From Haliotis rufescens (lineage: Eukaryota), in NCBI RefSeq assembly GCF_023055435.1, contig NW_025964223.1, positions 37,634,001 to 37,698,000 of the forward strand: a stretch of DNA of 64,000 nucleotides, read 5' to 3'. A program made the translations under genes and the position numbers. Shown in pieces: positions 1,523 to 54,224 of the stretch. The stretch's first letter is position 1, and each line of letters starts with the position of its first letter. The notes under the pieces were generated by a model. It made no database searches and was not told the DNA's origin. It worked only from the letters and a program-made list of their open reading frames with translations.

Positions 1523-1757
1523 TACCGTATTCGACGTAATAAGCACCCATGGCGCTCTCAACATTAGAACTATGGGTCTCTTATTAGAATATAATTTTGG
1601 TGAGAAAAAATAGAGTTGAAAGATTGTCAATATTGTGGTTTATGCTGACAGCCTGGAACGATACAAAAGAAAAGTCTGTGCGTATTATACACGACAAATA
1701 TACTTTTTCAGAATTTAATTGCCCATAATTAAGGGTGCATATAACACACGAGTGCAC
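1523..1757 (-). mobile_element. Partial pogo/Tc2-like MITE (same family as 13596..13919)
   Basis: Begins TA-CCGTATTCGACGTAATAAGC; reverse-complement similarity to 13735..13921. Confidence 0.7.
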
Positions 1758-1835
1758 ATGTTGTTATGCAAGCATCGTGGCATACAGGTTCAGAAATAAT
1801 AAAGCAAACATGTCAAAGCATCATGACATGGTATC

Positions 1836-2965
1836 ATTGCAATCTTGGCCCCTCTTGGACAAAGTGGACAATTGTTAGAAATGTCGTATTCATTGTCAAC
1901 AGATGCAGTCCTGGCCCCTCTTGGACCAAGTGGACAATTGTTAGAAATGTCGTATTCATGGTCAACAGATGCAGTCCTGGCCCCTCTTGGACCAAGTGGA
2001 CAATTGTTAGAAATGTCGTATTCATTGTCAACAGATGCAGTCCTGGCCCCTCTTGGACCAAGTGGACAATTGTTAGAAATGTCGTATTCATTGTCAACAG
2101 ATGCAGTCCTGGCCCCTCTTGGACCAAGAGGACAATTGTTAGAAATGTCGTATTCATTGTCAACAGATGCAGTCCTGGCCCCTCTTGGACCAAGTGGACA
2201 ATTGTTAGAAATGTCGTATTCATTGTCAACAGATGCAGTCCTGGCCCCTCTTGGACCAAGTGGACAATTGTTAGAAATGTCGTATTCATGGTCAACAGAT
2301 GCAGTCCTGGCCCCTCTTGGACCAAGTGGACAATTGTTAGAAATGTCGTATTCATGGTCAACAGATGCAGTCCTGGCCCCTCTTGGACCAAGTGGACAAT
2401 TGTTAGAAATGTCGTATTCATTGTCAACAGATGCAGTCCTGGCCCCTCTTGGACCAAGTGGACAATTGTTAGAAATGTCGTATTCATTGTCAACAGATGC
2501 AATCCTGGCCCCTCTTGGACCAAGTGGACAATTGTTAGAAATGTCGTATTCATTGTCAACAGATGCAATCCTGGCCCCTCTTGGACAAAGTGGACAATTG
2601 TTAGAAATGTCGTATTCATTGTCAACAGATGCAGTCCTGGCCCCTCTTGGACCAAGTGGACAATTGTTAGAAATGTCGTATTCATGGTCAACAGATGCAG
2701 TCCTGGCCCCTCTTGGACCAAGTGGACAATTGTTAGAAATGTCGTATTCATTGTCAACAGATGCAGTCCTGGCCCCTCTTGGACCAAGTGGACAATTGTT
2801 AGAAATGTCGTATTCATTGTCAACAGATGCAATCCTGGCCCCTCTTGGACCAAGTGGACAATTGTTAGAAATGTCGTATTCATGGTCAACAGATGCAATC
2901 CTGGCCCGTCTTGGACCAAGTGGACAATTGTTAGAAATGTCGTATTCATGGTCAACAGATGCAGC
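1836..2965. repeat. 66-bp minisatellite, ~17 near-identical copies
   Basis: Period of 66 bp (10 units between 1861 and 2521); produces spurious 22-aa-repeat ORFs in several frames. Confidence 0.95.
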
Positions 2966-3439
2966 CCTGTGCAATTACATTTTTGTGCTAAGTAATAAAT
3001 TTTGCTTGAAGGTAGTTACAATCCATTTCCTACCCTATAAACCATCTTCTGATTCTTATGAAGTCACACAATTAACATGAACTGGCCCTTGCCTTCACAG
3101 CAGATTTCTCTGTTGAATGCTGATGTTTCTAACTTGGTGATGTTTATGGTAATGCTGTTCTTGTTATTTTATTATCTGCATCTCCTCTTTTCTTATGACA
3201 CTTTATTGCCAGGTTAATGCACCTTGGGTGAAGCTATGGTTCAATCATCGACGAATGTATTAATTTGCCACCCTATTACCAGCAACGTCCTTTAATTCAA
3301 CGTTGAAATTAGATAATGTGCAAAAGCTCGCGTAATAAATAAATCTCTAAAAGGAGTATCAAAACGTTTTCATCCTTGCCTACATCCAACTGTAATACTT
3401 TTGTGAGCTTTAGTTATTTTTCAACAAAGTCCCCTTGCA

Positions 3440-3765
3440 GGCCAGGACATTTATTCCATGTCAGTCATCGCCATGTTGCAGAAGGTGAAATCTTAGTCTG
3501 TAACCAGACCTCTACAGCAGCAACAAATTATTGGTCCTCATTAAATCTCCGACCACAAAAGTGTTTTACCCAAATCTGAAAACAGGTAGCAATCACAAGA
3601 GGTCAGATCTGGTGAATACGCTGCATGAAGTACAAGCCTGTCTCCACATTCCCATACTGCAACATGACTGGTGTTAACTCATGCAATCTTTTCAATAAGT
3701 TAGCATAACATGCGCCATTCATAGTCCTTCCCCATGGTAAATAATCAATGTGTATTACTGTCCTA
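3440..3765 (-). pseudogene. mariner transposase C-terminal relic
   Basis: Minus-strand translation gives VIHIDYLPWGRTMNGACYANLLKRL and HAAYSPDLTSCDCYLF (YSPDLAP-type motif) with stops and frameshifts. Confidence 0.75.
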
Positions 3766-3929
3766 AAGCTTAACGCAACATGTTAATACACAATGTGTAC
3801 ATTATACATTATCGAGCGATCGAACTCGCTCTATTCGACTTTCCGAAAAGTGTTGTTATCTCCCTTTGCAAAGAAAATTAGAGTGATGTCCCCTTTTCAC
3901 GTTCACTTCCGTCGAGTAAACCTTCAAAA

Positions 3930-6076
3930 TTGCGTGAATACCTACGGGAACGAAATCAAAAGGTGACTGGGATAAGAGCACAAGTTTTAGCGCGAGCAAG
4001 AGGGGCGAAGGCACTTCGTTTGGATGCAACCACCTTAGTACAACCAAGTAAAGGCGTTATATCCTTGCAACGGAAGCTCGTCACACCCAGCGGATATCGA
4101 ATGCCAGACCCCACTACATTAATGATTGGATGGAACGATGCTGTTGAATCATTGCCGGAATTCTCAGAGAAGGAAATCTACAATTATATGGTACTTAGCA
4201 ACCATAGGACTTCAGACACGAAACCCATGATGGCTAAACGACAAATGAAGGCAGTGGTGTTTTACCAAGATAGACATGTTCACGGCGTAGCTCTACACAA
4301 CATCCATCACAACTGTGACCATATGTTTGTCAGATGCCGTGTCATACCATCACTACCAACAGCGGATCCTAAGAAAAGCCCCGATCACGAAGTTTGGGCA
4401 AGTCTCTCAAAAGTTACAGGTCGTGTTCATTCAGCAAATTGTACTTGTGCAGCTGGGTATGTAGACTTTGCATTTATATAACTACAGTCGTGTCATCTAT
4501 ATCTAGATCGCTGTTTTTTTACAAACAAAACGTTTAAAAACCTTTTCAAAGAAAATATGTTCCAAATATTAAGTTTGATCAAAAGATTTGTAAATTATTA
4601 ATTCCAAATACCAGCAAAGTAATTGATACATTTTAAAATCTCTTCCTTTGTGGGACCTCTCATTCACTTTTGTTAATTTAAATAAATAAACAGATTATTG
4701 ATATTGTTGCTTATTAATATGTGACATCTTTAGCTGATTACATTAAAAATAATAATTATTTAGGGTGAAATAGAGGAAACATGACTGTGTCATTTTATAT
4801 GCATTTGATTGTTATTTCATAATATTAAAGCTAGAGTCCAAATAATATTAATAAATATAACTAATTTTGTTTTTGCAGTGCCGGGGAGGCTTGTAATCAT
4901 GTATCAGCCCTGCTTCATGCCCTTGCAGAAATTAGTCAGAAGAAAAAGGATGGTTTGCTTTCATGCACATCAGTTGAGTGCAAGTGGAAAATTCCCAGAA
5001 AAAGGAAGTTGGATCCAATGAAATCGGATGACTTGAACCTGATGTCAAGTGGCAGGAAGAGTCAACAAAAAGGTACTGGGACTACACAAGGTACTGTCGG
5101 AATACAGAATGGAACAATCAACAAAAGATCAATGTGTCCCAACAGCAACATGCCACAGACAACAATAAATCTCACAAGATTTAATAAGAAGTTAATTGGT
5201 CATGAAACAAAAAGTAAATGTGGATATGTTGTTAATACAACTACTGTTACTCAAGCTCCTGAACCTATGCCAGAACTTCCAAAAATACCATGCATTGATC
5301 GTTGTATTCCTGACTATGTTGATATTAAATCGCCAACCTGTCAAACTACCTTTCAAAATTATTTTGATTCCATGAAAGTGTCAGAAAAGGATGTGAGGTC
5401 AATAGAGAGAATGACAAGAGGACAACATAAAACAAAGTTTTGGAAGGAAGCCAGATTGGAAAGGATAACAAGTTCACAGTTTGGCAAAGTATTTATCCGA
5501 CAGACATCTACAGCTCCAGATAGACTTGTATGTGACCTAATGGGATATCGGGGCGAATTTGGTAACAGACATACCAGATGGGGACTTTCACATGAATCGG
5601 CAGCAAGGCGGCAGTATATCAACAAAATGGCAGGTCTTCATCCACAGTTGAAAGTGTCTCAGTGTGGACTAATTGTGAATACAGACTACCCTTACCTTGC
5701 AACTAGCCCTGATGGACTTGTGTCATGCACAGATTGTAGTACATGTAGTAATCAACATGGCTTAGTAGAGATTAAATGTCCATCTGTTTTCAGAGATCTA
5801 ACACCAGAAGAGGCTGCATCAAATACAAATTTCTTCTGCCATATTGTGGACAAAAATGTGACTCTAAAAGAAAACCATGCATACTACTTTCAAGTACAAG
5901 GACAGATGGCCTTGACCAAAAGAACTTGGTGTGATTTTGTGGTGTGGACTCTCAAAGGGATATCTATTGAAAGGATTACATTTGACGAGAACAAGTGGCA
6001 TCAGATGGTCACAAGGCTTCGCAGCTTCTATCTGTCAGCCATTATTCCTGAAAAATATACCCTACGTGTCCAGTGA
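3930..6076 (+). CDS. Transposon ORF2: SAP-like + SWIM zinc finger + YqaJ/lambda-type exonuclease; exons ~3930..4456 and 4879..6076
   Basis: GT-AG intron 4457..4878 joins CTCAAG|AGEACNHVSALL (SWIM CxC..CxH) in frame; nuclease motifs RITSSQFG, WGLSHE, SPDG, EIKCP, YYFQVQGQM; start codon uncertain (first in-frame ATG at 4101). Confidence 0.85.
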
Positions 6077-6483
6077 GGTGTTTCACTGTATTAGATTGAC
6101 CGTTGCACTACCATCTTACCAGTTGTTTTACCCTATGCTCACTCAGTCAATTCAATGTTTCACTCAATACCATATCATATCTTTCTTTGATAGTCATAGA
6201 TACTTACCATTCAATGGGTGAATTGTTACTTAACGCCGCATTCACGGCGACTGACCATTCAGATAGTATGTCGCTTAGACATAGGATATCTTCTTCTCCT
6301 TGTAATTTCTTGAACCATTCTATTAAGCCATAACATATAATAACATATTTTCTGTAACGTCTTGAAATGACAACATGGACAACATGATTTAAGAAAATCA
6401 TCAAGCTTTTATTTCTTTCATTTTTAGTTATTGTCACAAAAATTAGAACCATGGGACTATGATCCTGCTGTCACAGCTAAAAC

Positions 6484-8110
6484 ATGAAATTGTTTATGTT
6501 CTTATATGAAGATAAACTCACACTCATGAGTACACAAAAAGAACTTTTAGAACGCCAGCTTGTTTCCGTCAACGAATCAGTGAAACTGTTGGAAGATAAA
6601 ATTATCTCCAAAGCGGATCAACACTCTCAAAACATCATCAACACTGCTTGTCAAGCAGTCAAAGACAGAGAGCACAAGTCCACACATGAAAAATTCAACA
6701 CCAGATTTGTTAGCCTACAACAGGCGGCTATCAAATCTGACCCCTTCGCCGCCAAACTATACGTGCAAGGGACCCCGACCCAGAAACGGGCCAAATCTCC
6801 CAAGTTTCGCCCCTCGAGACAACCATCACGTGATCGAGCTCGTGGACTACGCAGACCACGACAGAACTTCCGCCCCGACAGGGGCAATCAAGGAAACAAT
6901 TCGCGGGACCTCAAACGGGCCCTAGAGCTGTTGTCGAAACACCTCAACTTCAACAACAACAGTTTGTGCAATAAACTTTCTAATCTGAATCTGAACAATA
7001 ACTCAGATAATAAAACTGGTGAATCTTATCATGACAACTTTGTTATCAATCTTTCCGATTATGACCTTAATCCATCTGAATTAGAGGTTCTTAACAAGGG
7101 ACTCACTTTTAGCCCCACCCCTAGATTTACTGACAAAAGTAAAACCTTTTCCGACCTGAAACAATTTTTCAGAAAATTATGTCTCACTCATTTTTTCCAT
7201 GATTCTTCCATTGATGGCACTTCACACCCGCTCCAAAACACACTGGATCACAAATTCGGTCCCAAAAGCACTTGGACCCCTAGACCTTATACCGACCCAA
7301 CACTAGAGTCGTTTATCAAAGCAGTCTCCAATGATTTTAACAAACTTGGTAATATAAAATTCACATCAGTCTGCTTGTTTACTCTGCTAGTTACTCTGTG
7401 TTCATTAGTCATCCACTGGCTTCCAATTAGCTTAATCACCTCTCTGTGTCCATCAACTAGTCACTGTAACAACTTAGATGTCAATAAGTGTATATATACC
7501 TATGTTGTTTAGCCCTATCCATCACTTGCTTGATAAAGGTGTTAGGATCTACACCGAAACGTCGCACTAATTGTAATAAAGAAGTTGTTCATCCATAGAA
7601 CTTGTCTTACTTCAGGACAGTACTACACTACCCACCCACCCACCAAACCGCAAATTAGCGGCAAGGTAGTCAACTTCGTAAATGAGAGTTGCAAAAGAGA
7701 AGGATGCAAAATCTGCAACTCCTTAGGTAAAACACATACGTTTCGCAGCTCGACATTAGGCAAAACATTCAAAATCCACAAGTTTGAATGTACAAGTAAA
7801 AACATAGTTTACTTGCTAACTTGTAACAAATGCAAGAAACAATACGTTTGAGAATCCAAAAGAGAATTTCAGACTAGACTGAAAGAACACTTTGCAGACA
7901 TCAGCTACAAGAGAGACAAACCTGTAGCTAATCACTTCAATAGTGATGATCACAGCACCAAAGATGTTAGATATAACATCATAGCACAGCTCAAGGAAAA
8001 CCCTGAGTCTACTGACACCACAGTTAAGAGGAGAGCACTTGAACTGAGGTGGATATTTGAGCTAAAAACGTTCCACCCGCACGGTCTCAATGACAGAATG
8101 GTTGGCTGAT
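6484..8110 (+). mobile_element. Penelope-like retroelement remnant: N-terminal ORF and GIY-YIG endonuclease, RT missing
   Basis: FVINLSDYDLNPSELEVLNKGLTFSPTP (PLE N-terminal motif); CKREGCKIC..CTSKNIVYLLTCNKCKKQYV*ESKR..RLKEH..PVANHFN..ELRWIFELKTFHPHGLN with one stop; true element ends not resolved. Confidence 0.85.
7527..7566 (+). ncRNA. Minimal type I hammerhead ribozyme motif (U3:A8 variant) in a Penelope pLTR-like insert (~7350..7612)
   Basis: TGC-TTGATAA-A-GGTGT-taggatct-ACACC-GAAAC-GTC-GCA: core, 5-bp stem II, palindromic ACGT stem III, short TGC/GCA stem I; AATAAA at ~7575. Confidence 0.7.
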
Positions 8111-8392
8111 TAATTTTCCCCCTTTGGTCAACTTGCTACTTATATGAAGAGTCAGGATTTTTATATCAATGCTTTGATTCAATAAGTAAAACAAAAATAG
8201 ACAACCAGTAGGTGGTCATGTCAATAGTCATATTGGACAAAAATAGACTTATTTGTCTAGACTTATTTGGCTCAATGTTTTCAATACAAAATTGTTATCA
8301 TGATACCATGATTATTAAGTTTAAATACAGCAGAAAATATCATGTGACCATTCACATCTGGAGCTGCAATAAGATTATGCTAATCCTACTAA

Positions 8393-10573
8393 TTACAGAG
8401 CAAGCAAGGAACTGTCATCAAAGAAGTAATTGTCATCAATTTCTTGGTCATGAGGATAAAGAGGGGGAAGCAGAGTAGTCAAAGCATTACAGATTTTCCA
8501 GATTTTGTTTACAGATTTTGAAATTGTAATTGTAATTATACCCTGCAAAATTCTGAAATTCTTGACACGTTCCATGTGCCTTTCAACATGGATTCTCAAG
8601 TTCGCTATTCTCCTAGTTTGTTCAATTTCTACAGCAGTCAGCTGTTTTCTCTTATGTTTCTTTGGTGGAATTATTAAGAGTATACCTCTTGGTGTTGTCA
8701 AGTCTGAGATTGTAAATCCCTTATCCGCCATGATTGCATCACCTACATCACACAAATCTAAAAGTCCTGATTCTACTGTTATTTGCCGGTCACTTATAGC
8801 TCCTGACCACAAGTCAGAGACAAAGCTAACAACACCATTTGGAGTGACACCAACAAGCGGTTTAAATGTTATGTGACTTTTATAATGACTGTACATTTGT
8901 GACTGTTTACCAATAGAGTAAGGTTTTTCTGTAAATAATTCTGTACAATCTATAACAACCCTTGTATTTGGATACAGATCTTTAAAACCTTGAGGCATAG
9001 TTGTATTAATAGTATCCATTGATGGCCAGACAACTAGGAAGGATAAACTGTTGTACAAAATATCAATCCATCTATTAATGATATCAGCACAGCAGCTTCT
9101 GGAAATATGAAATCGCTTTGATAAATCAACAACTAGGAGTCCAAGTCTAAGACGCATCAACACTAGAAAGAACTCGTCTATCAAAGACAAAGATTTAGGG
9201 CGTCCGATATTGGATGTTGGATAGTCCCTGTCATGAACCTCAGAAAACTCGTCAAATAAACATGAAAACTTTTCTGCATCCACAAGACCTGTATAATAGG
9301 TTACCAATTCTGAATCATTCTTCACATCAAAAAATGTTAAATCAGGAAGTTTGACTTGAGTGGCTTGATTGCGAAAGACTTTTTTATTTTCAGTCTCAGT
9401 CTGAGTCATTGCACAGGATGTTTTCACAGGATTTAAACACTGGAACATTACATCGTCAGTTTGAGTAGACATGCTTCTAACTTCCACCATTTCTGTTTGC
9501 GATGATCCATATCTTTTGCAACTGATGTCGTCTTCACACACAGCCTCACAGTAGTCATGCAGCATAATTGATGCAACGTCATAGGATCTGTCAAAATAAT
9601 AAATAGCTTTTCATCACATTAAATATATAGTTTTTTTCCGATATTTTGAGGTTAAAGGAATTAAAATTAATAAAAAATAAATTAACATAAATCTGTTAAT
9701 ACAAAAGCTAATATAAGAAGTGTATTATCAAGTTTATTGGTCAATGCTCTATTATATTTTATGCTCTCTATATATATTTTATGTTCTTTATATTTTATTG
9801 TTCTGTAAGTAAGAGAGACTACACCATGATTTTTATATTTTGTCTTGTTAAGCATAACTTCTCATAATAATCAACAAATTCAAAAAAGAGAAAAAACTTA
9901 TGTTCCCGCTGTACCTGGCACCTTGACTGAATGTTGTGGAATGATGTTCAATTTCATCAGACTGAGGAGTCCCTCCATGTACCTGCATAGTCACTTTGGG
10001 AGATTCAGGGTCACAGGCCTGCTTGAATGGGCTTTCATTTGGCTTCGAGGTATCAACAAAGTCAGCATCAGACACCTGCAACAAATTATCAACAGACACT
10101 GAGACATTTTTTTTCTATTTATTCAAACAAATAAGATGAAAGAGAGGATACATAAAATTTTAAGATCAACACAACTTGAAACGTTTTTGTTTGTTTTTTT
10201 CATTTCAAGTTTTAATCATAGCACTTTTTTCACAATCACATAACATTCACAAACGATAAAACACATTAAATACACCAACAATAGCATAAATCTTATAAGA
10301 ATCAACATAACTCACTGTGCAAGTACTGTAATTTTTCTTCGGAAAAATCGATGGAACATCATGCCCTATGCCTGGACCGTTACCACCCACGAAATGTTCT
10401 GAGCAAATTTCCGTGTGCTTGGTCACTGTGAGGTCTTTTCTCACTAACCGAAGTCGCCTTATCCACGCTTGTCGTAGGGACTTGCTTACTGGAATGACGT
10501 GTAGAGATACTATTCTTTCACCGACTATCTTTCCCCTAAAATTGCTACAAATACAGCAGTATTGCTTCCCCAT
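8393..10573 (-). CDS. THAP + HTH + DDE_Tnp_4 (ISL2EU/Harbinger-type) transposase; exons 10573..10316, 10075..9915, 9587..8393 (~537 aa)
   Basis: THAP motifs C..C, W, ICSEHF, VPSIF; catalytic VIDCTE, MADKGF, RIHVERHMERVKNFRIL; two GT-AG introns join in phase (258+161+1195 = 1614 nt) with no stop. Confidence 0.88.
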
Positions 10574-10857
10574 TTTGACAGCTTCGAAGCAGCGCGCTGT
10601 TTTCGACGGAAGTTGACAGTACTCGGCGGAAGTTCATTCAACCAATTGAAGAGTTCCAACTCAAGACGGATAACTCTCATTGAACTTGACTTTTCGGAAA
10701 GTCGAATACATGTATATATATATGTGTGACGTCAGACGGTGAGTGCACGAGGAATGACGTAATACATTGTGCACCTCGGCATGCAGTTATCATATACTAT
10801 ACACAGCGGAACAAGCCGATTTAACTCGGAATGTTTTACAAATTGCAGCGCCATCTG

Positions 10858-10975: not shown

Positions 10976-11729
10976 GTACACATTGTTCTTTCTTTTCTTA
11001 TGACGTCTTTTCGTAACATTTGACTATTAATATTGTATTTTGACCTTTAGTAGTAACATTTAGTTCTTTATTCGTAATATTTGACCTTAATTGCGTACTT
11101 TTATCCTTTTTTTCAACTTTGTATTTTTTGACCGAATGGCCGCCCATTATGGTGGACGAGAGGGGACATCGCTTTCTCGCTCTATCGCTTTATCGCTTTA
11201 TCGCTTTCTCGCGGTTAAGCAGTATCCCCTCTTGACCACTACAGGGGCCGCATGTGATATCAGCTGCAATTGGGAGGTAATGTTGAACTTTTCCCACTAT
11301 TTACTTAAAACATAATTTAACTGTACAGACGTAGGTGATTTTAAAACAATCCACCGATTTTTGCGTAAAATGTAATTGATTTATTTATGGCCCTATTCAG
11401 TTGTATGTGACCATCTCGCCGAAAGCGCGTGGCAGATCATGGCCATACGCTCTAAATAAATCAGGTTAAAATCTAAATATATACTTTTCAAAAGAAGTTA
11501 AGAAGACTATGGTTAATTAGTCATGGCTGATTGTTTTGCAAAAATACAATCTTATAATTGTTGGTGTTCTATAACTTGTTTTCGGTAGTATATGATTTAC
11601 AGTGTGTCATAAGGTTGTCCGTAAATGTTCTTTTTGACATTTGATGTATGTTTAACTTGAATTGTGTTTCTTGTCTTGTGCAAATCTACAAATATATGTA
11701 CTTGCATATAGTAATTTGATAAACACCGC

Positions 11730-11893
11730 TGTGAGTGAGTGAGAATGGTTTCACGTCGCTTTTAACAATAATCCAGTTATATCATGGGTAACACCAGAAA
11801 TGGGCTTCACACATTGTACCCATGTGGGGAATCGAACTGGGTCTTCGGCTTGACGATCGAACGCTGTAACCACTAGGCTATCCCACTGCCCCC
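11730..11893 (-). mobile_element. tRNA-derived SINE (family A) inside the IS3EU-like element
   Basis: Box A TAGCCTAGTGG and box B GTTCGATTCC on the minus strand, (ACTC)n tail; homologous to 18417..18586. Confidence 0.8.
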
Positions 11894-13595
11894 ATCGCTG
11901 TGGCGTTACCACAGTTAATATGTGTACTTGTGTAAACTACACATATGGAGAGACATAATTAGTATGGCCACATAGTTAAGGTTGATAACAATATGAAATG
12001 AATTACTATGATTATCTATAACATATATTAAATCAGCTATCATTGTGATATGTTATGTATATCTTAAGTATAGTTTTGTCAAAATTATGTATGTGTGTGT
12101 GTGTGTGTGTGTTTCCGACTCATTGTCTGTGTAAAAAGGTAGTAGATAACAACATAACTCATATCAGAACGCACAATTGTTAACCATACATTTTAAATTG
12201 ATAGAGAATTGCTACATGAATATGTATATTCCTGCCTGAGCCTATACTATAATTGGATATCTAGTCTCCCCTGGCGGGAAAGTTAAACTTTATTTTACAA
12301 GCACTTTAGCATTAAATTTAATTCCCGAAGACAGTTTGATCGAAAGTCATTATAAGAAACGAGTTGTTTAAAAAAAATATTTACAACGCATTTCATTTCT
12401 ATTGTCCAAGGAATGGGGGTTACGGGTTAATGACGCTCTCGAAAGTCGTATATGTGACTTAAGGTAGAGACATATATCTAATTCATCTGTATTTTGTAAG
12501 GGAAACATAACTGTGTACATGTATGCATAATGTACATGCAACTTAATGAACATAATTGTGATCCCGAAATCGGACGAGCACGTATTCGGCTTCAATTCCA
12601 AACTAATTACCGAACAAAATAATTCTTTGGACGTTGCAAACAATACAAACTGTCTAATAAAACTGACATATATGATCTCCTTTTTATCAGTTTTAAGTTT
12701 GATGGAGAAATGGGGGGGATACTATGAACAAAATGAAAATATGAACAGTGACTATCTGTATTCTTTGAATCTTGCTTATTTATTACACTACAAGAAAATA
12801 TGCAAGCTAAACGAGAAAAAAGTACGTGTGTATTTTGTAACATATTTATCTACTACAAGATGTTTAAAAAATATAATCATAAGAGGCAAAATAGCGGTGA
12901 GAATTACAGGATCACTAAATATCAGCAAAAACCGTTTTAATGTACGGCATTATGGGAGATATTGCTTTCTCGCTCTATCGCTTTATCGCTTTCTCGCTCT
13001 ATCGCTTTCTCTCGGTATAGCAATATTCCCTCTTTGGGTTTTAAACATAAAAGAGAGCTGAGATTTTTCCAGTCGCATTTCAAATTATACATATGGACGG
13101 AATGTTGAAATTTTCTCACTATCTACTGAAATATAATTTAACAGTACAGACATATGTGCTTTTATAACAATCCACGTATTTCTGCGTAAAAAAGAATTTG
13201 ATTGATTTATGACCCTATTTAGCTATTTGATCCCCCGCCCCTAGGCCAAGTTATCAAAACAAATAGCAAATAACACCGCTCAATAGCGATGAGTAGTACG
13301 TACTTCCTAAAAAGCAATGGTGTTTTCCTAAAAACAACGCTTATATCAACGTTTATTCTGTTTGCGGAGTAGATGTCATCAAAGTGGAAGTCCTCATCCA
13401 AGCAATGGTAAATACTACCGGATGTCCTTTATGTAATTTCTAGTTTTTGGATGACATATTGTTCTCAGTAACCGTAATGTGAAAATAGATAATTGATTGG
13501 TTTTATATTCAAGTTGGTATTTCCGCTATTCAAAGTGTTCAGTGAGGCCGTCTTATCAACAGTCATTTCTGAGACATAAATGCAAAGTATAATTA

Positions 13596-13919
13596 CCTTA
13601 TTCGAAAGTAATAAGCGCCCCGCTCTAATCAAAGCCCACGGCGATATTTGCTAAAATATTGGCTAGTGAACAATCCCAATTAGCACCCCTTGCGATTGAT
13701 TAATGTACACAAGACTTATTTATTCGCGTATAATACGCACTCGTGCGTTATATGCACCCTTAATTATGGGCAATTAAATTCGGGAAAAATATATTTGTCG
13801 TACATAAACATTTCAGGCTGTCAGCATAAACCACGAAATTTATCTTTCAATTCAACTTTTTTTTTCCGCAAAAATATTATTCTTGAGAGCGCCCTGGGCA
13901 CTTATTACGTCGAATACGG
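13596..13919. mobile_element. pogo/Tc2-like MITE with TA TSD
   Basis: TIRs CC(T/G)TATTCGA..GTAATAAGCGCCC / GGGCACTTATTACGTCGAATACGG; an empty site with a single TA is present in the sister element near 54755. Confidence 0.8.
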
Positions 13920-14414
13920 TAATTATGTCTAAGCTAATTTTTTTGCATTTATAATTAACGTTAATTTCAAGATTTACAGCACATACTATTCAAAAGAAGT
14001 TAAAGAACACCCGATTCCTTCATATGACTATGGTTAGTCATTAGAAGAAGCAATAGGGCGAGAAAGCGATAGAGCGATAAAGCGAGAAAGCGATAGAGCG
14101 AGAAAGCGATAAAGCGAGAAAGCGATAGAGCGAGAAAGCGAGAAAGCGATGTCCCCTCTCGGCCACCATAGCCCATAGATGGCCACAGCTTCAACCATTC
14201 ATGAATATTCCGTGGTGATTGACCCTCCATGGTAAAACATTTGATGACTGCTATACACTCAAGCTTAAACCATTTCAATGCTAAGGAGTTGGGTACATTA
14301 GAGTTAAAGTAAATTATCGGCAAGAAACATGCCAAACTGTGAAAGATTACTCTACAAACACAGGTCAATACAAAAAATATGTGTCACACATTAGCATCAT
14401 AAAACCCAGATATA

Positions 14415-15867
14415 TACTGAACAACACACGTTCCTGTGACATTGAATAAGATTTAATGCAAAGTTATATAGTTATATTTTTTACCAAATCTGCAACAATT
14501 TCGGTTTGCAACAGATAAAAGACTCTGTAAGTGTGCAAACGGTTTAATTTGACATACTGACCTCAGAAAATGCGTGATTTCATAAAAAACATGAACATGC
14601 CAAAATGTCAATATTCAAATCAATAGCGTGTGTGTCCACCTCTGGTTGCGATGCAAGCAACACATCTTCGTCTCATGGAATGGACCAGGCGCCGCAAGTC
14701 CTGTGGGATATCTGTCTATATCTGCTGGAGCATGTTTCGAAGTTCCTGGAGTAAATGTGGAACACGTGGTTGACGTCGAAGGCACCGATCCATCTCATCC
14801 CACATGTGCTCGATTGTTGAGAGATCCGGGGAACGAGCCGGCCAGGGGATGGCTTTCACGTTGTTTTGTTGAAGAGAATCCTGAACAAGTCGAGCAGTAT
14901 GAGGCTTGGCGTTGTCATGTTGAAAGGAAATGTCTGGGCCATGACGACGCAAAAACGGTAGAACAACAGGGCCGATGATCTCATCGCGGTAGCGCTGTCT
15001 ATTGAGATTTCCCTCTACGACAATCAAACGGGTCCTCTGTCTTGCTGTAATCCCACCCCATACCATACCGCTACTGCCCCCGAACCGATCTTCTTCCATG
15101 ACACAATGATTGACGTAACGTTCACCTAGACGTCGGTACACTCGAATCCGTCCATCACTGTGGCTGAGGTGAAAACGAGACTCGTCAGTGAATAGAACTC
15201 CCCACTGCATGGCCGCCCACTGTACACGTGTTTGACGGTGGTTTCCTGTCAAAATGGGACGTCTGGCGGGTCTACTGGCGACAATCCCTGCACATCTGAG
15301 GCGACGACGTACGGTTTGTGAAGATATTCGTCGAAGAATTGTTTTCGTAGGTGTGTTGTTCGAATCCAGTTGTCTTGTCGATTATTGGTTACGCGTGGCC
15401 TGCCACTCCGAGGATGGTCTCTGACTGCATTCTTTTGTTGCCAACGTTGTCATAAACACTAAATGGCGTTTCTGTGGACGTTAAATTGTCTTGCAACATC
15501 ACGTTGACTCGATCCTGCTTCAAGTATACCAATGGCTCGCAGACGCTCATTTTCGAACAGGCGTGGCATTTCGTAATGTTGAATAATTGCATAATTTTGT
15601 TGTTTTTCTGAACGGTTGTTGTCAGCACGATGCTAAACAATGCATATGGAATCCCCTTAACGCACATGTTTTTATACCCATTCTTTGGTAGTGAAATGCA
15701 TGGGGCTTGCATAAAAGTCAACTTTTGCATGGAATGCATGCTTTTCTGTAGCAGTTGCGTTTTTGTGGCTTGATTCCATACATATACTACAATTTTGAAA
15801 ACCAAACTTTACTTGTTTGAAAAATACACTAAAATATTGGTGTCACAGGAACTTTTGTTGTTGAGTA
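14415..15867 (-). mobile_element. Tc1-family transposon, decayed; transposase pseudogene ~15569..14620
   Basis: Imperfect TIRs TACT(G/C)AACAAC..GTTCCTGTGACA flanked by TA; motifs MPRL, GRPRVT, FTDESRF, FQHDNAKPH, WPARSPDLSTIEHMWD; internal stops. Confidence 0.9.
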
Positions 15868-18586: not shown

Positions 18587-21585
18587 CTCTGGGAAGACAA
18601 GGAATCAAGATTTCTAAAGGAGAGACAGTTGAGGACCAACTTGAGGGAGAAGACAACTGCTGTATTCAAGCCTAATGTGTGCAATGACATTCCAGAAGAG
18701 ATTGAGATCTTAGGAAACAGTACAGCTGAGGCAAGGTATGATAACTTCTGTGAATGTGTTCATCACTAATACCTCAAGTTGAGACATTTCCCTCAGATGC
18801 AAGACCAATGTAGGCAGCCTCCACAGTGTAAAGTCAGTGTTTCTACTGGTTGACAGAGATGACACCCAGGATCAGGAAATAGACTTGAAGGCAACCACAG
18901 TCACAGACATTCCACCTCCTAAAAGGGACAATGATGAAGTATTGTGGCAACCACCTGTAGACATCGGACAGGACTTCACTCAGGAACAGCAAGAGCAGAT
19001 CAAGAAATTCTTGTTTGAGGAATCAGAAGCATTCTCTAGGAATGATGATGAAATCAGAAAGGCAACAGACTTAAGCCTTGAAATTCGTCTGAAAGATCAC
19101 GAGCCCGTTCAGCAGAACTACATTGCTATTCCAGGAGCACTTTACAAGGAAGTCAAAGAGTAGCTGCATGATCCTATCCAGAAGAATTCCATCAGGAAAA
19201 GTCGATCATCATACTCAAGTGCCATGGTGTGTGTCAGAAAACGAGATGGATTCCTACGTCTATGCATAGACTACAGGAAGCTCAACCAGAAGACGATCAG
19301 TGACCAGCAGCCGATCCCTAGAATACAAGATGCACTCAATGGCCTGAAAGGAAAGTCTTGGTACACGCTACTTGACCAGGGAAAAGCCTATCATCAGGCA
19401 TATGTGAAGGAAGAATGTAAACCTCTCACAGCCTTTGAGACTCCATGGGGCCATTACGAGTGGAATCGGATACCGTTTGGATTGTTAGGAGCACCTGGCC
19501 AATTCCAAAGATTAATGGAGGAGACCCTAGGAGACTTGCGAGACACCTGCTGCTGTCCTTATCTGGATGATATCCTTGTAGTCTCGGGATCTTTTGAGCA
19601 ACACCTGGAAGATTACGGGAGGTGCTCAAGAGACTCAAGGAGAAGAGCATCAAGCTGAAGCCAAGAAAATGTGCGATTTTCAAGATACAAGTCCACTACC
19701 TTGACCACCTTGTGTCCAAAGATGGATACCAGCAGTCGAGGCTCTGAAAACCAAGGAATCAAGACTATTGGAGACCTTCGTAGATGATGCTTGGATTTCT
19801 AAGTTACTACAGGAAGTACATCATTTTTCTATCATTGTCAAGCCTCTGTACAACCTGCTGAAAAAGGAACCAGTCTTACAAAGGAAAGAGAAATTACATT
19901 GCAAAGGACAAGTGAAATCATCTTCCAAAGTAGTGTGGACCAATGAGCAACAACAGATCTTGGAGCAAACCATCAACATGTTGCTAAAGCCTCAAGTCAT
20001 GACATGACTTTGAAAAGCCATATATTCTGCACACAGATGCCTGTCAGGAGGGTCTTGGGGCTGTATTGTACCAGAAGTCAGAAGATGGTAAACTACGGAC
20101 TGTGGGATATGGATCCAGGATACTAACTCCTTCAGAAAAAAACCTACCACATGCACTCTGGCAAACTTGAATTCCTGGCTTCGAAGTGGGCAAAAGTGAG
20201 AAGTTCAGAGACTATCTATACTACGTTCCCAGCTTTATTGTATATATGGATAATAACTCACTCACATATACATCTTAACAACAGCAAAACTGGATAGCAC
20301 ACATCACAGATGGCTTACAGAATTGTCAGACTTCAACTTGGAGACTAAATACAAGCCTGGTACCAACAACAAGGATGTCGATGGACTATCAAGAATGCCA
20401 CTAGATATCAACAAGTATATGACCGAGTGTACAGAGACTGTCATCACAGAATGCAAGGAAGCCATAATACATGCAAATATAACCGGAAAACGACCAATTA
20501 CCTATATGGATATCTGCATTTTGCAGTGATGCATCAGTATTACCAGAAGAAGCCATCATTACACAGTTGCATAACGGGTTGTCTCAAGAGAAAATAAAGA
20601 AAGCTCAAGAAAAGGATAGTGTAATGAAGCCAGTTCTAAGATACAAGATCATGAAGAAAAGACTAAAGATGGATGAATCAAGTTCCCTAAATCTGTCCAT
20701 TGATGAGAGAATGCAAGACTTACCTACAAGGAGTAGAAGAGAGAACACAGCTTGTATTACCTGCAGTTTACAAACCACTTGTACTCCAAGAACTCCATGA
20801 TAATATGGGACACCTTGGAGCCAACCGAGTTCTTGCACTAGCCAGAGAGAGATTCTTTTGGCCTAAGATGAGAGAAGATATAGAATTCTCTGTGACAAAG
20901 AGATGTACATGTATCAAGGACAAAACACCAACTTGCCAGACAAGAGCACCAATGATACCAGTCCAGACTACAGCACCATTTGACCAAGTATCTATTGACT
21001 TTCTTCACCTGGAAAAAAGCACAGCAGGATACGAATACATTCTAGTAGTTGTCGACCACTTCACTTGATTTGCTCATGCGTACCCCACAAGAAACGAAAA
21101 GGTGAAGACGGTAGCAGAGAAAATCTTCAACGATTTCATCATGAGGTTTGGATATCCAATACATCTCCATCACGACCAAGGCGGAGAGTTTGAGAATAAG
21201 ATCCTCTATGAACTTCAGAAACTAAGTGGTATTCAGAAGTGCAGGACGACCAGCTATCATCCTCAGGGGAATGGAAAAGTCGAGAGGTTCAACCGGACAT
21301 TGTTAATTACGCGGAACGATTCCACTGGCTTTTCACCATTTTACCTCATGTATGGAAGATCACCTAGGCTACCCATCGATCTTGTCTTCAATCACCATGA
21401 AGAAAAGAGTTAAACCATCCAGGACGGTACCAACAAGTGGAGAACAAGAATGGAGGAGGACTATCAACTGTCATTTGAGCACTATGACCGGAAGGTAAAG
21501 AGTGCGCAGCTGCTACCTGGTGATCAAGAACTTCTAAGAAACTTATCAGAGCAGTGAGGACCAGGCATACTGAGATCACATTGGG

Positions 21586-21851
21586 TTGGTTGGTTGGTTT
21601 GTTGTTTAAAGCCGCACTCAGCAATATTCCAGCTATATGACGGCGGTCTGTAAATCGAGTCTGGACCAGACAATCCAGTGATTAATATCATGAGCATCGA
21701 TCCACGCAATTGGGATTGATGACATGCATCAACAATGTCAGCGAACCTGACCACCCGATCCCGTTAGTCGCCTTTTACAACAAACATAGTCACCTTTTAC
21801 GGCAAGCATGGGTTGCTGAAGACCTATTCTACCCCGGAATCTTCACGGGTC
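21586..21851 (-). mobile_element. SINE-like retroposon (family B), full length
   Basis: 13-bp TSD AGATCACATTGGG; (AACC/AAC)n tail; at least 5 further copies in the window. Confidence 0.9.
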
Positions 21852-23416
21852 AGATCACATTGGGGAGACCAAGTGTACACCATTACCAAGAACATTGGCG
21901 ATGAAAGCCCAGTTTATGACATAACTCCTGAAGATGAAACTGGGAAAACAAAGGTGGTACACAGGAACTTACTCTACCCATGCGATTATATTTAGACAGA
22001 CCTCAAGAACCCATCCAGAAAACAAGACAGAAGATCAAAAGAACAAGACCAAAGTCAAGACAAAGGACAAGACAAGGACAAAGTCTTTGGAATTTAAAGT
22101 ATCTCAGTTTTGTTCAAAGTAGCAATGTTGACTATCCAAAAGAACCCATATCTAAACCACTTCCTGCCAGAGATATCCTTGAACAGACTGATAGAATTGC
22201 CCAACAGGACAGAGAAGAACCAGGAGAGGCTACTGACTTTGAAACTGCAAGTGAATACAATTTTGAATCAGAGTCTGATTCTGACCAAGACTTACCGCAA
22301 GAAGCTGTGGATCAAGATGGAGATGGAACGAGACAAATTGATGGAACTGAGGCTGCTACTGCACCACCTGATGCATCAGGAGAAGTTCCTCCTCGTAGTG
22401 CAAGGATCCGTCGACCCCCAGCACAGCTGACCTGTGACACTGTAGGCAACCCATCCAAATGGCGTCTACATCCTGGAGTTCACTTCTTCCAAGCAATGCT
22501 GATCCATACCTACCAGTACCAGTACTTCAGGCAACCCATGATGTTCAGAGTGAGTGCCTACCCACAGATGTACTCAGTTCCAGTAATTATGTTATTCTAC
22601 CAGGGAAAGATGATAACAAGTGCTGAGAACTGAGATAAGAAGTGATGACTGTAGACATTTTTTGTGAATGAAGAGCGTGATAGAGATTATAAAGTGTGGG
22701 GCTGTTTGTTCTTGGTGAGATTGCCATTGTATACTACTATTGAATTTTGAAAGGTGTATTAAAGGTTGTGTGATTGGATAATTGTCCATCAGAATTTTGT
22801 AGTTAAGTCTGTCTATGGATGAGATGTAACAATTGTAGATCGATCACAGTCACAAGGTTTAGTAATGTCATTGTTGTGGTGAATTAGGGGTATCCAGCTG
22901 TATTGTTAGTGAGTACTGGTATGACCAATGCTTTAAGCCTTTGCTCTTGAGTGAAAGTTTTAAACCTTGTTATTATTTACATCACATTGTAAGCAATATC
23001 ATGTCACACTTAAAGTGTTGTTATTTAGTGTAGCTAGTATGTTTTACCTCAAATTGATTGGTAATCTAGGGTGATAGATAAGTATCATGTTTGTAAATAT
23101 GTTTAAACTAAGGTTAGTGGTGATGTGTGAACTGTTGGTAGTAAGGATACCTGCTTTGTCTGATGTTAGGATAACATCAATTTTTGTGGGGGAGTGTGTA
23201 ACAATATGATTAGATTAAAGTGCATTCGGCATGGATTTTAGGAATGCTTCTTGTGACACTTTAATGACGTCTATGGTCAAAGGGGGACATGACATGAATA
23301 TTGATCATGCCACTTTTACGTGATAGCAGAATGCAGCCTTCTGATTGGTTGCGGCCTGAACGTCCTTGTACCATGTTGATTATATCTTGAATACAAGATT
23401 TCATCGCGTCTCCTCC

Positions 23417-29582: not shown

Positions 29583-32500
29583 TCACCGGTCCTGCCTCTG
29601 ATTACGGAGACGTGCACATATACCAGTGGTGGTGTTCATGTTGATGTTGTCATCACGCACAATATCGATCTCAACCTGTGGGTCTTGGTCCAGTGTGCTG
29701 AACAGGTTCTCCTCACTCCCCCCGAGCCCTTGGGTCCCCCCCAACTTGGCGTTCTTGCAGCTCTTCAGGTGCCGGGTCAGGTGGTACTTGGAGTAAAAGG
29801 ACTTGCCGCACTCAGTGCAGGTGAAGTTGCGCTCCTTGTTGTGCACCAGCATGTGTTTCTTGTAGTTGGCTAGCCTGTAGAAGACCTTCACACACAGGGC
29901 ACAGGGATAGCACTTCTCCTTAGTGTGCTTCAGCTCATGAGACTTCAGGTCGGAGGGGCGAGCTATCTTTGCTGAGCAGAATCGACACTGCAGTCCCTCT
30001 CCACCTGTGTGGATAATCATATGAGACTGTAGATGGGCCTTCTGACGAAATGACTTGCTGCAGATGTCGCAAGTAAACTTCCGTTCACCTAAAACAAATA
30101 TGACATTTTATTCATTTTTTAAATGTTTTTTATGTTTTACTTGAAAGGAAAAAAGAATCCCAAAGTTCTATCTGTCATTTTAAAACAGGGAAACATGAAA
30201 TGGTCAAGAAAAGAGGTATGACCAGGGTCATGTTACTGCAAAATCTGATGTCCTTGCTGTTATGAATCAGAGTAAATGTTACCAGCAACATGTCTTGTTA
30301 TCAAACTTGATACAAATAAACAACTCTCCCTGAAACCAGTTGATCCTTTATATACTACATACTGTCGGCTGACATTACCTCATCCATCCTCAACATTGGG
30401 CAGTCCGTATTGTGTATATATATACATCATGTGTACAATGACCAGTGACATCTTGCAGGCATAACTCCTATGTATTCTATGTATGGCTTAGTTACCTATA
30501 GATTTAACTGTCCTAAAGTAAACTTAGAACTAAACGTGCAGGGCAGACTTCTCATAGAGGTATTTATTGTCACTGTTAGAATGAGCTGCAGTACCAGAAT
30601 CCCATATGCCCTACTTTGTCGCAGCTGGATTTCCAACTGCCAGTTAATCTGTACAAATTCACTGGCTTGAATTTCTCTTTTTGGTTCACAAACATCCCAG
30701 AACTATGTGAAAAGCTGTCAATCCCTCATTTAATTATTGGTAACGTTTGGTAAAAATTCAAGCAAAAATTCCAAACTTTTACTTGTATCCACAAGTATTT
30801 TCTAAACTGACTCCATCCCTCCCTACCTGTATGTATGTTCTGGTGCTGGCGGAGGTTGCTCTGGTCGGAGAACTTCTTGCCACAGTGTGGGCAGGAGAAG
30901 GGCTTCAGCCTCATGTGCAGGGCCACCATGTGGGTCTTCAGCTTGGTGGTGGAGGTGAAGCGTCTGTTACACATCTGACACGGCCAGCGCCGCGAGCTGG
31001 AGTTGGGGTGGTCCGTCTTCATGTGTCTACTGAGGCTCTTCCAGTCACTGAACACTTTACTGCACACATGGCAGTAGGGACAGTTGGAGGGCCAGAGCTG
31101 GCTGGGTTTAGCTGGCAGACCTGTATATGATGCAGTAAACTGGGGTGAGCATGGGGGATAGCTCCTGCTTCAATAATATTATATATTAACAGCTAAAATA
31201 GTATTGTAAAACTATTGTAATAGTACTGTGAGGCTATGGTGAGTTTGTTTTTCTTCCCATAATGTGTACTTCCTCTGTGCAGTATTGTGTCCCTACGTTC
31301 TTAATACGAGGGTGGAGTCATATGTTCTGAGCCCCACATATGTAGCGGCCATAAAATTCCCGTGATGGGATTCGAACTACGGACCTTCTGATCAGATGTC
31401 GAACACCTTGTCCACATGACCAAAGAGGTTAACTCCATCAGCAAGCAGACAAGGTAAGGATGTCATCCGTTGGATGACTCCACGCCCTGCTCCATATGGA
31501 AGGAAGTAGGTAATCGGGAAATATTTTGTGGTGGACATTACAATCAATCTTTATTCATAAAGCAGTGGATGCCATAGGCCCATGCTGCAGTTACATCATT
31601 GCTTGAGAGAGTAACAGCATATACATTGGTACATTCATATACATTGTTCACCCAAATGTCTTAGTTGCACTGATTTATTTACAAAAGTTGCAAGATTTGT
31701 AACAGTTTCTGTTTGTTTTTTTAAGTCATTAGTAACTTAAATTTAAGTAATGTTGGATATAAGTAGAATTCTGGGGGTATATACACGCTCCTGAGATTGT
31801 CATAAGCATAACACACAAGTACACAAGTATTTGTCGCATTGTGACAATGCCCCCAACCGCTACAAAATAATAACATACATAAGTTCCCTAAATTTAAGTA
31901 AAGTAGTCACACAATATTTCTCCATGATATCCACATAAATTTGAGCTACAACACTTTTAATTGCTTTTATCGAAAACCGGAAGTTGTGATTTCATGTGTT
32001 GGACAATATAGAATATCTTCAGAAGGATTTCAATTCAAAACCTACAGAATCAACAAGCAGTCCAGGCATGAAACAATATCCCTCCCTGAAATTTAAAAGT
32101 ATTTTAGTTTATTGGTGGAACATTTTCACTGCAAGTAAAGTAAGTAAAGTTATGCCTCATGAGTTTACATAGCTGCTACATCTGCTACATCTTCCCCCTA
32201 CACAGAAAGTTCCTAAGTGTGCCTGGAGGTTGGTTTACGACAACAACCAATACAGATGTCTCTGATGTGTAACCATAACTGCCATTATGTTGGATGTTGG
32301 ACAATGAAGCTGTGTGTAACTCAGATCGCTCTAACCCAGTATTGCATCCGTGATCAGATACCTTGCGCAGGAATGAATGAGAAGGGAGACAATCATATCA
32401 GTGTATTTCCTCATCTTGGAGATGGGTTTTTGTGAGGTATAGCACTGACATTGTATTGGTGAATTCTTCTGTCAGGAGGTGATTGTAATGTGTATAGAGA

Positions 32501-51952: not shown

Positions 51953-52510
51953 CTTCCAGAAACTCCTCACAGCGCGAAAGGTATGTTAACGCTTGAGGTT
52001 TGCCAAGCAGGGTTGCTTTTGAAATGGTACCAAGGCCGTAGTTAACCTTTTTTGACAGGGGGGTGCAAATATTTGTAGAAGTATCACTTGTCCCCAACTT
52101 GTATTTTCATGATTCAAATAAAACTGTTTTTTATATTAAAAAAACGGGGGGGGGGGGGGGGGGGGCGGTTACAACAAGCTGCCCTTGTCATTCAGCTTGG
52201 CATGAAAGTCGACGGTGTGTACATTAAGATTTCAGCTATGAGTCGCACTTTTCCTTTGAAAATAACAAATTTATTATTTGATTTTCAATTAATATTATGC
52301 AATGTGAAATATATGCATGTATATATCTAGGAATTTACACGTCTGATAGGTGACGTTTTAATCATAAAAGAGGCTCCACCCTTTTGCATATATTGCTGGC
52401 TTCACCTTTCAAAATGTTTACCCTTTTGTGTACATAACAGGCTTCTCCACTCCCGGGAAAGTACATCTTAATCTACTCTACTGTATAAACACTGCCTCCT
52501 ACCTGTATAT

Positions 52511-53476
52511 ATGGGATCGGGTGGTCAGGCTATCTCCACAGCTCCAAAACCCAAGCACATTCAGTCATTATTCACGGCTGAATTGGAGGCAATTCATCAT
52601 GCACTCAAACTCATTCCGGAACTTCCGGAAGCAAAGGCAGTCGTCCTATCAGACTCGCTAAGTGCACTTCAGGCCATCAGTGGCAGAAACTCAAACTCCT
52701 GGCCAAACACAGTCAACAATATTCTATACGAATATACAAAACTATCGGACCAAGGGCAACAGGTGGAGCTGTGTTGGATCCCCTCTCACATAGATATTCA
52801 TGGAAATGAAAAAGCAGACTCACTGGCGAAGCTAGCTCTAGACAAAGCGGATATACAGCCTATTCCCTTTAGTAAACTAGAGATAAAAAGCAAAATCAAA
52901 GCCTCCATAGCAGAAAGATGGCAAGCCCAATGGGACGCAAGTAAGATCGGCAGATGGCTATACAAAATTCAACCCAAGGTCCAACAAAAGCCAAACTCAT
53001 ACTCAAATGAAAGGAAAATTGAAATTGCTATCTCACGCCTCAGACTCGGTCACAAAAAGCACTATGACAAAGTTTGTTCATCTTGCAATCAGGCTGAAAC
53101 CATTGATCACGTGTTACTAGAATGTCAAGACCATGCCCCAGCCCGGGCTAGTTTAAAACAAGAATTGCAGTCAGATCCGCTATCTGTCATAGATCTGCTA
53201 AAGCCAAGAGATGCAATAGCGAAGGCCAAACTAACTCTATTTCTGGTGACGGACAGTTACTCGAACGTATATAAACAGAGCAGCCAAGGATAGAAATGAA
53301 ATCATATCAATATAAGAAAATAGAAATCATATCAATACAAAAACAGAAATTATGTGAACACCAAACTCACAATAGATAGGTGTACCCTACTCACACACAT
53401 GAGTCCCAAAAAGGGACAGGTCAGCCGAAATTGCCTAGGCAGAAGGCGACCTCCTAAACACTTAATGCAACAACAG
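52511..53476 (+). mobile_element. 5'-truncated I-group LINE: RNase H, CCHC finger and 3' UTR
   Basis: SLFTAELEAI, SDSLSALQAI, WIPSHIDIHGNEKADSLAK, CSSC..ETIDHVLLEC; short CAA tail. Confidence 0.85.
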
Positions 53477-54110: not shown

Positions 54111-54136
54111 ACGTAAACCATACTCTGTTCATCACA

Positions 54137-54176
54137 TGCTTGATAACAGTGTTAGAACCTACACCGAAACGTCGCT
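54137..54176 (+). ncRNA. Second, more degenerate minimal hammerhead motif in a Penelope pLTR fragment (~54120..54223)
   Basis: TGCTTGATAACAGTGTTAGAACCTACACCGAAACGTCGC followed by the same AATTGTAATAAAGAAGTTGTTCATCC tail as at 7570. Confidence 0.6.
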
Positions 54177-54224
54177 CCCAATTGTAATAAAGAAGTTGTT
54201 CATCCGTATATCTTATCCTTACTA

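Follow-up and report, generated by a model that had tools for sequence, protein, structure and literature searches.

General features of the locus

The 64,000-bp window of the red abalone (Haliotis rufescens) genome analysed here (assembly GCF_023055435.1, contig NW_025964223.1, positions 37,634,001 to 37,698,000; coordinates below count from the first base of the window) contains a DNA transposon of the ISL2EU kind at positions 3835-10705. The element is bounded by 17-bp terminal inverted repeats (TIRs), flanked by a duplication of the dinucleotide AT, and carries two convergent, spliced genes, one encoding a transposase and the other, here called ORF2 (second open reading frame), a YqaJ-type nuclease. 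Without a nested relic it is 5,233 bp long. This copy is, with near certainty, a damaged and probably non-autonomous member of a young, low-copy Haliotis family of ISL2EU cut-and-paste transposons. An earlier annotation made from the letters of the window (the sequence-only reading) had recognized a two-gene ISL2EU-type transposon with convergent spliced genes, and the domains, the spacing of the transposase core residues and the inverted match of the ends all confirm it. Elements of this kind are already known, and because their architecture has been described since 2014-2015 a specialist will find this one unsurprising. A literature search, which did not reach Repbase Reports or subscription papers, found no account of an abalone ISL2EU family.

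Four public sequencing runs were compared with the window over positions 3400-10850. X2 is a DNA run; the RNA status of X1 and X17 is a guess, and X17 carries a different species label. All three introns proposed by the sequence-only reading (4457-4878, 9588-9914 and 10076-10315) are present as GT-AG joints in X17, probably an RNA run, and none of them in X2, which supports the predicted splicing; X1 contains only the joint of 9588-9914, and its main ORF2 contig is unspliced. The small-RNA run X22 yielded 22 reads, all partial matches, and is uninformative. The summed depth of X2 over the element is about 10x that of the left flank, a figure that is no measure of copy number and was not used.

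Transposase and family membership

The transposase gene is composed of the following features:

10316..10573, minus strand: exon 1, with the THAP domain (Pfam THAP, E 2.6e-7) and the ATG at 10573
10076..10315, minus strand: intron 1; joint in X17, absent from X1 and X2
9915..10075, minus strand: exon 2, splicing to a stop-free frame
9588..9914, minus strand: intron 2; joint in X1 and X17, absent from X2
8393..9587, minus strand: exon 3, with HTH and DDE core (D353, D428, E475; Pfam DDE_Tnp_4, E 5e-43; HTH_Tnp_4, E 1e-14)

The spliced product (10573..10316 / 10075..9915 / 9587..8393) is 537 amino acids (aa) long, stop-free as predicted, and identical to the H. rufescens RefSeq model P0274; the closest proteins are Haliotis RefSeq models, at 98% identity. 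THAP, HTH_Tnp_4 and DDE_Tnp_4 all score above the curated Pfam cut-offs. The core residues D353-K376-D406-D428-P447-R471-E475 are spaced by 22, 29, 21, 18, 23 and 3, in agreement with the PHIS pattern D(19-29)K(29)D(18-40)D(11-19)P(18-28)R(3)E of Han et al. 2014 (PMC4122938). The transposase cluster has 12 members, four of which are 537 aa long. Since these four full-length proteins differ from one another at only 4-11 of 537 residues, the family is young, as had been supposed.

The core features of ISL2EU are all present: a THAP-HTH-DDE transposase, PHIS spacing, a YqaJ ORF, an AT duplication and a short TIR. The abalone element shares the transposase domains, the YqaJ second ORF, the AT duplication and an animal host with the elements of Han et al. 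(2014, PMC4122938; 2015, PMC4482050), the latter of which covers 25 families, four from oyster. Transposases of the four Crassostrea gigas families are 444-544 aa long (PMC4482050, Table S2), compared with 537 aa in abalone; ISL2EU TIRs span 6-259 bp, a range that includes the perfect 17-bp TIR found here; and the mean ISL2EU length is about 4.84 kb, compared with about 5.2 kb for the abalone element without its relic (PMC4482050). The element departs from two features described as usual, a TIR beginning with GG rather than TCG and a target context of A-AT-T rather than T-AT-A, both of which vary among relatives. It also differs in the SAP and SWIM-like domains of its ORF2, which go unmentioned in the accessible parts of the published descriptions, and the window copy in being damaged and in carrying a Penelope-like relic.

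Other assignments were considered and rejected. PIF/Harbinger elements have a related DDE core and two genes, but their partner protein is of the Myb/SANT type and their duplication is the 3-bp TWA; the second ORF of the abalone element is SAP/SWIM-like/YqaJ, with no Myb family in Pfam. Spy elements, again with a related DDE core, mostly have one ORF and insert in AAATTT without duplication, whereas the abalone element has two genes, a THAP domain and flanks other than AAA/TTT. KolobokE (PMC9587614) is likewise a DDE transposon with a lambda-exonuclease-like PD-D/ExK nuclease, but belongs to another superfamily, duplicates TTAA and has its transposase domain followed downstream by the nuclease; here the transposase is DDE_Tnp_4, the nuclease is a separate convergent gene and there are no TTAA flanks. 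No transposase relatives were found in viral contigs, where 59 pattern matches gave 0 confirmed cases.

Element termini and target site

The ends of the element and their surroundings are as follows:

3813..3832, no strand: 20-bp hairpin between two AT dinucleotides, outside the left TIR; its 6-bp stem folds; absent from 5/5 listed empty-site joints
3833..3834, no strand: left AT target-site duplication, in the context T-AT-A
3835..3851, plus strand: left TIR, 17 bp; positions 5-17 have 11/13 bases in common with an end of the close relative L002
10689..10705, minus strand: right TIR, 17 bp, the inverted match
10706..10707, no strand: right AT target-site duplication; a single AT is kept here in one X2 empty allele

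The sequence-only reading had reported perfect terminal inverted repeats and an AT or TA duplication. The inverted match is indeed perfect over 20 bp (3832-3851 / 10689-10708), and the longest one in 500 shuffles of both end regions was 13 bp. We take the duplication to be AT; from the window copy alone it may also be read as TA. L002 shares a subterminal motif with the abalone element in addition to the terminal bases listed above, and together these set the register to 3835, with AT as the duplication. The closest relatives, L002-L004, have ends that line up with 3835 and follow T-AT. AT stands directly before 31/32 listed related termini, which is consistency and not proof, because the starts were chosen partly by the presence of that AT. 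Among 31 related ends, AT follows A 21 times, T 9 times and G once; the preceding base is T in L002, L003 and L004. The T-AT-A context of the abalone element differs from the A-AT-T reported for ISL2EU; A-AT-T is a preference that varies within ISL2EU and not a criterion for exclusion.

ISL2EU TIRs usually, not obligatorily, begin with GG (Han et al. 2015, PMC4482050). Ends could be read in 11 related families: in 10 the first base is A, one (the L079 group) opens with TCG, and GG is absent. The TCG terminus of the abalone element is thus uncommon, as had been remarked, and not unique: it recurs in the L079-group ISL2EU family, and it lines up with the ends of the nearest relatives, which start with A. 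The idea that the TCGA termini mark a new group was rejected. Only the two ends of the element match the TIR within the 64-kb window; scans with a TIR pattern returned 0 matches in metagenome contigs and 1 in viral contigs, taken as chance.

Empty sites had been suggested as a way to fix the duplication, and they do so only in part. One X2 allele keeps a single AT, its flank running through 3812 and joining to 10708. In each of the five listed empty-site joints the flank breaks off at 3812 or earlier, so that the 22 bp to the left of the TIR are missing as well, which counts against an end at 3835. Because the allele with the single AT lacks those 22 bp too, the empty-site proof of an AT duplication is not clean. 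Were the true left end at 3813, the family would have longer TIRs (about 39 bp) and the outer 22 bp of the right end would have been lost from the window copy; the same X2 allele would then represent a clean AT duplication for 3813-10705, and the absence of 3813-3834 from every listed joint would follow. We consider this unlikely, given that the ends of L002-L004 align at 3835 with T-AT before them and that matches in X17 end at about 3832 (deduced from a joint and bin depth) and at 10708. With the left end placed at 3835, we take the 3813-3832 hairpin and its AT to be filler or a small insertion unrelated to the element; it may be what is left of a different element that also targeted AT and has collapsed. 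X2 also contains a joint from 3929 to 10604, with 6 letters between, that represents a miniature derivative of the element, reduced to about 200 bp by internal deletion.

The ORF2 gene and the condition of the window copy

ORF2 faces the transposase gene from the left end:

3930..4456, plus strand: remnant of exon 1, encoding the C-terminal part of SAP and the start of the SWIM-like region, by comparison with the 600-aa sisters P0127, P0129 and P0130
4457..4878, plus strand: GT-AG intron, interrupting the SWIM-like CxC...CxH motif; joint present in X17 and absent from X1 and X2; agrees with P0123
4879..6076, plus strand: exon 2, YqaJ/lambda-exonuclease domain (Pfam YqaJ, E 3.6e-18), ending at a premature TGA

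The ORF2 cluster comprises 14 proteins, 10 from H. rufescens and 4 from H. cracherodii, and the 600-aa form is found in 3/14. The window frame (574 aa) opens at Leu21 of these sisters: the start codon and 20 codons are gone, and we infer a deletion of about 60 bp at 3929/3930. The first in-frame ATG is at 4101, and ORF2 read from it is identical to the RefSeq model P0123. The statement that each gene starts within about 130 bp of a TIR was not confirmed for ORF2. The SAP-like reading is upheld by the sisters, in which Pfam places SAP at residues 13-44 (E 5e-5, just under the curated cut-off); since they start 20 residues earlier and no ATG precedes 4101, the SAP domain of the window copy is partly deleted and untranslatable. 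At the other end, the TGA at 6074 removes 6 C-terminal residues and cuts the conserved R-G-x-x-L motif (R in 53/97 and G in 51/97 aligned rows); contigs of X1, X2 and X17 have C at this site, giving an Arg codon. The catalytic E/D/ExK residues of the nuclease are present in the window copy, so that the claim of intact DDE and D..ExK residues holds. The transposase in turn has private residues at two conserved sites, Pro383 and Thr492, each found in 0/97 aligned homologues (column 492 is Pro in 83 of the 97), and contigs from X1, X2 and X17 all carry the sister residues at both. The sequence-only reading had called the copy near-intact, a description rejected in view of the lost ORF2 start, the premature TGA, the private transposase residues and a 1,638-bp Penelope-like insertion that it did not report.

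It is very improbable that the window locus is itself active and autonomous. It has perfect TIRs, an open transposase frame and its catalytic residues, empty alleles exist, and a 517-aa ORF2 from ATG 4101 would retain the SWIM-like and nuclease domains. Such a protein would nevertheless lack a translatable SAP and the conserved C terminus, the transposase has the two residues seen in no homologue, and among the differences listed the window letters at the damaged sites occur in 0/3 contig sets. The window copy is the wrong template for a functional test of ORF2. A better system is offered by the mollusc family itself: it is young, its gene models have RNA support, its TIR is 17 bp long, and it includes sister pairs such as P0130/P0278 that are almost identical and look intact, in which the role of the ISL2EU nuclease could be tested.

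The domain predictions for ORF2 fared unevenly. THAP and DDE_Tnp_4 in the transposase and YqaJ in ORF2 (E 7e-18 in the domain check) were found by Pfam, which reported SWIM in 0 of 8 proteins scanned; the SWIM-like reading is based on the CxC...CxH motif and one structural match. In the AlphaFold model of the intact sister P0127 (mean predicted local distance difference test score 75), residues 95-230 match ZSWIM8 with Z 9.3 and a root-mean-square deviation (rmsd) of 2.6 over 99 aligned residues, a shared fold only. SAP domains are matched weakly (Z 5.5-5.8). The nuclease part is closest to LHK-Exo (Z 17.9, rmsd 2.6, 179 aligned) and lambda exonuclease (Z 17.6), followed by the Epstein-Barr virus alkaline nuclease (Z 15.1) and mimivirus R354 (Z 13.8). 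Like lambda exonuclease and LHK-Exo (PDB 3slp, 3syy; Z 17.6-17.9), ORF2 conserves the W-x3-R, E, SPD, ExK and Y-x2-Q-x-Q motifs; unlike them, it is fused to SAP and SWIM-like domains, contains an intron, lacks an annealase partner gene and is known from sequence and a model.

Some distant ORF2 relatives (P0088, P0089, P0090) have an extra cysteine-rich C-terminal extension. PF00628, which we take to be the PHD finger, was assigned to several other search hits.

Conservation and co-inheritance of ORF2 in relatives

Transposase alignment defined 85 related loci, the best 80 of 376 in metagenomes and 5 from genome contigs. The nuclease gene is present in 53 of them, always downstream and on the opposite strand and never on the same strand; in 27 of the remaining 32 the contig ends within 1 kb of the transposase. 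Record numbering pairs the two genes as well: their accessions or locus numbers follow one another in H. rufescens (P0130/P0278 and P0126/P0268), in H. rubra, in Pecten and in Mya, a pairing that reflects adjacency of record numbers and not inspected DNA. The expectation that they occur together in other copies is thereby borne out. Five of the elements, L082-L086, several with full TIRs, lie in contigs titled as bacterial metagenome-assembled genomes (Dehalococcoidia, Nitrospirales) and are most likely animal host DNA within bacterial bins.

In these relatives ORF2 keeps its catalytic residues, evolves under purifying selection and is inherited together with the transposase. E435, D474, E493 and K495 are invariant in 97/97 aligned proteins, and R388 is present in 92/97. 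Among the 53 best matches, 16 had no visible SPD..ExK, mostly from covering other parts of the protein; in the census redone on the core, PD..ExK is intact in 32/33 loci whose match covers it. The ratio of nonsynonymous to synonymous substitution rates (dN/dS) of ORF2 ranges from 0.06 to 0.25 across 10 unsaturated pairs (dS 0.22-0.41) that come from two family groups, and that of the transposase from 0.05 to 0.16; pairs with dS > 2.8 (3/14 printed) were set aside as saturated. Transposase and nuclease distances among 24 dereplicated families are correlated (Spearman 0.43), a value reached by 0/2000 permutations, and four clades are common to the two trees, both built solely from homologues found in this analysis. 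Some observations point the other way: stops occur in 3/33 nuclease cores, one within-family pair has a dN/dS of 1.05, and L007/L043 are grouped strongly in the nuclease tree only, the one strong conflict.

Possible role of ORF2

Invariant catalytic residues, purifying selection, convergent pairing and co-inheritance together indicate that ORF2 is functional in the family. In intact copies, the THAP-HTH-DDE transposase would bind the TIRs, excise the element and insert it at W-AT-W, duplicating AT; this step draws on family knowledge, namely cut-and-paste by a DDE enzyme with AT duplication in ISL2EU (PMC4482050), and on the sequence. The SAP domain would hold ORF2 on DNA, and its lambda-type nuclease, to judge from the fold and the conserved residues, would chew 5'-phosphorylated double-strand ends in the 5' to 3' direction. 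Lambda exonuclease digests from double-stranded DNA ends and needs a 5'-phosphate, bound by Arg28 (PMC11611040), of which R388 appears to be the counterpart if the start of the matched stretch is ungapped. ORF2 would then resect the break at the donor site, leading to homologous repair of the gap with the sister chromatid or homologue as template, by which the element would be copied back and its copy number increased. Under this proposal ORF2 would be kept by selection on the element, because gap repair restores the copy and raises copy number. We see an even chance that ORF2 resects the donor break after excision and so favours copy-restoring gap repair. If it does, this would be transposon-encoded control of host repair pathway choice. 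More tentatively, ISL2EU may carry its own end-resection nuclease, combining SAP, SWIM-like and lambda-exonuclease parts, that turns cut-and-paste into active self-duplication.

Several points weigh against resection of the donor break. The second-ORF function is given as unknown in Han et al. 2015 (PMC4482050), and our search (again outside Repbase Reports and subscription papers) found no functional test of ISL2EU ORF2, in line with the sequence-only reading that its role is uncharacterized; the accessible part of PMC12730594 contains nothing on the nuclease. A single-strand annealing partner gene is absent from the element. The nuclease fold does not fix the substrate, because it includes the herpesvirus alkaline nucleases and mimivirus R354. 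Finally, the second protein of Harbinger is required for excision itself (PMC9179366), which favours a role of ORF2 inside the transpososome. There it would be an obligatory part, binding the TIR region through SAP and recruiting or activating the transposase as the Harbinger Myb protein does, and/or trimming the non-transferred strand before strand transfer. Such a role is consistent with the use of the second protein of two-gene PHIS elements for excision (PMC9179366) and with the SAP and SWIM-like domains of ORF2, and purifying selection and co-inheritance fit it equally well. However, the transposase has THAP and HTH domains of its own, and a nuclease digesting processively in the 5'-3' direction at the element ends would be apt to erase the TIRs. 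Moreover, in human cells single-ORF elements of Spy, the sister clade, transpose with their transposases working alone (PMC11304231), so the cut-and-paste chemistry need not require a partner protein. For this last reason we favour donor-break resection and hold the transpososome role to be somewhat unlikely.

ORF2 might also serve counter-defence or turnover at a distance from the break, degrading, for example, silencing RNAs, excised intermediates or competing elements. Its structural relatives include the shutoff nucleases of herpesviruses and mimivirus R354, and the SWIM-like region resembles ZSWIM8. On the other hand, phage recombination exonucleases score best in both the structural and the profile comparisons, the ZSWIM8 match reflects a shared fold only, and a SAP domain points to DNA, all of which makes this a decidedly improbable function.

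Nested Penelope-like relic

An insertion of 1,638 bp (6513-8150) lies between the two convergent genes:

6501..6512, no strand: left copy of a 12-bp duplication; pre-insertion joint in X1
6513..8138, plus strand: nested Penelope-like relic, by tblastn to P0297, a 910-aa protein with reverse transcriptase (RT) and GIY-YIG
7033-7356, plus strand: N-terminal domain of the relic (P0297 match, E 9e-14)
7527..7566, plus strand: minimal hammerhead ribozyme motif, U3-A8 core variant; fold, read by eye
7657-8097, plus strand: broken GIY-YIG endonuclease, with a stop (P0297 match, E 1e-20)
8139..8150, no strand: right copy of the 12-bp duplication, a direct repeat

Matches to the N-terminal and GIY-YIG regions and the presence of the hammerhead motif mark the nested piece as a probable Penelope-like relic, with the RT missing. 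Penelope-like elements with the U3-A8 minimal hammerhead variant have been described (PMC4209133); the relic resembles them in these parts, and differs in the absent RT, the broken endonuclease and the presence, where the RT would be, of a high-copy hammerhead repeat. This repeat, at 7380-7630, has very high read depth, and a second copy at 54130-54223 is 86% similar to it across 94 bp. Rfam leaves the hammerhead unreported: its two hits in 3700-10800 (E 0.47 and 1.9) are not real matches, and the second copy has no hit at E<=5.

The relic is passive cargo of the ISL2EU copy. Because X1 contains a joint of the pre-insertion form and X17 has contigs bridging both relic junctions, the element occurs both with the relic and in a relic-free form, and the relic is found beyond this locus. 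Within 6000-8400 the only plus-strand AATAAA/ATTAAA sites (6970, 7009 and 7575) are inside the relic, as is the hammerhead motif, and the only minus-strand site is at 6408; with such polyadenylation-type sites and a ribozyme motif, the relic could shift the ends of both convergent transcripts.

Other features of the window

A repeat present as two diverged copies, inverted relative to each other and about 12 kb apart (1515-1755 and 13737-13929), brackets the transposon. To its left lie tandem arrays of 41-bp and 66-bp units (1-1500 and 1700-3060). An element of about 3 kb at 11148-14170 has 65-bp inverted arms (91%) of 8-bp units, a third array at about 12950 and no recognized long ORF. Fragments of other mobile elements include a Tc1-type transposase (14716-15381, minus strand), a long terminal repeat retrotransposon pol gene with RT and integrase zinc finger, broken by stops (18783-22633, plus strand), and an RNase H-bearing retroelement (52472-53293, plus strand). 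Exons of a probable host C2H2 zinc-finger gene lie at 29583-31169 on the minus strand.

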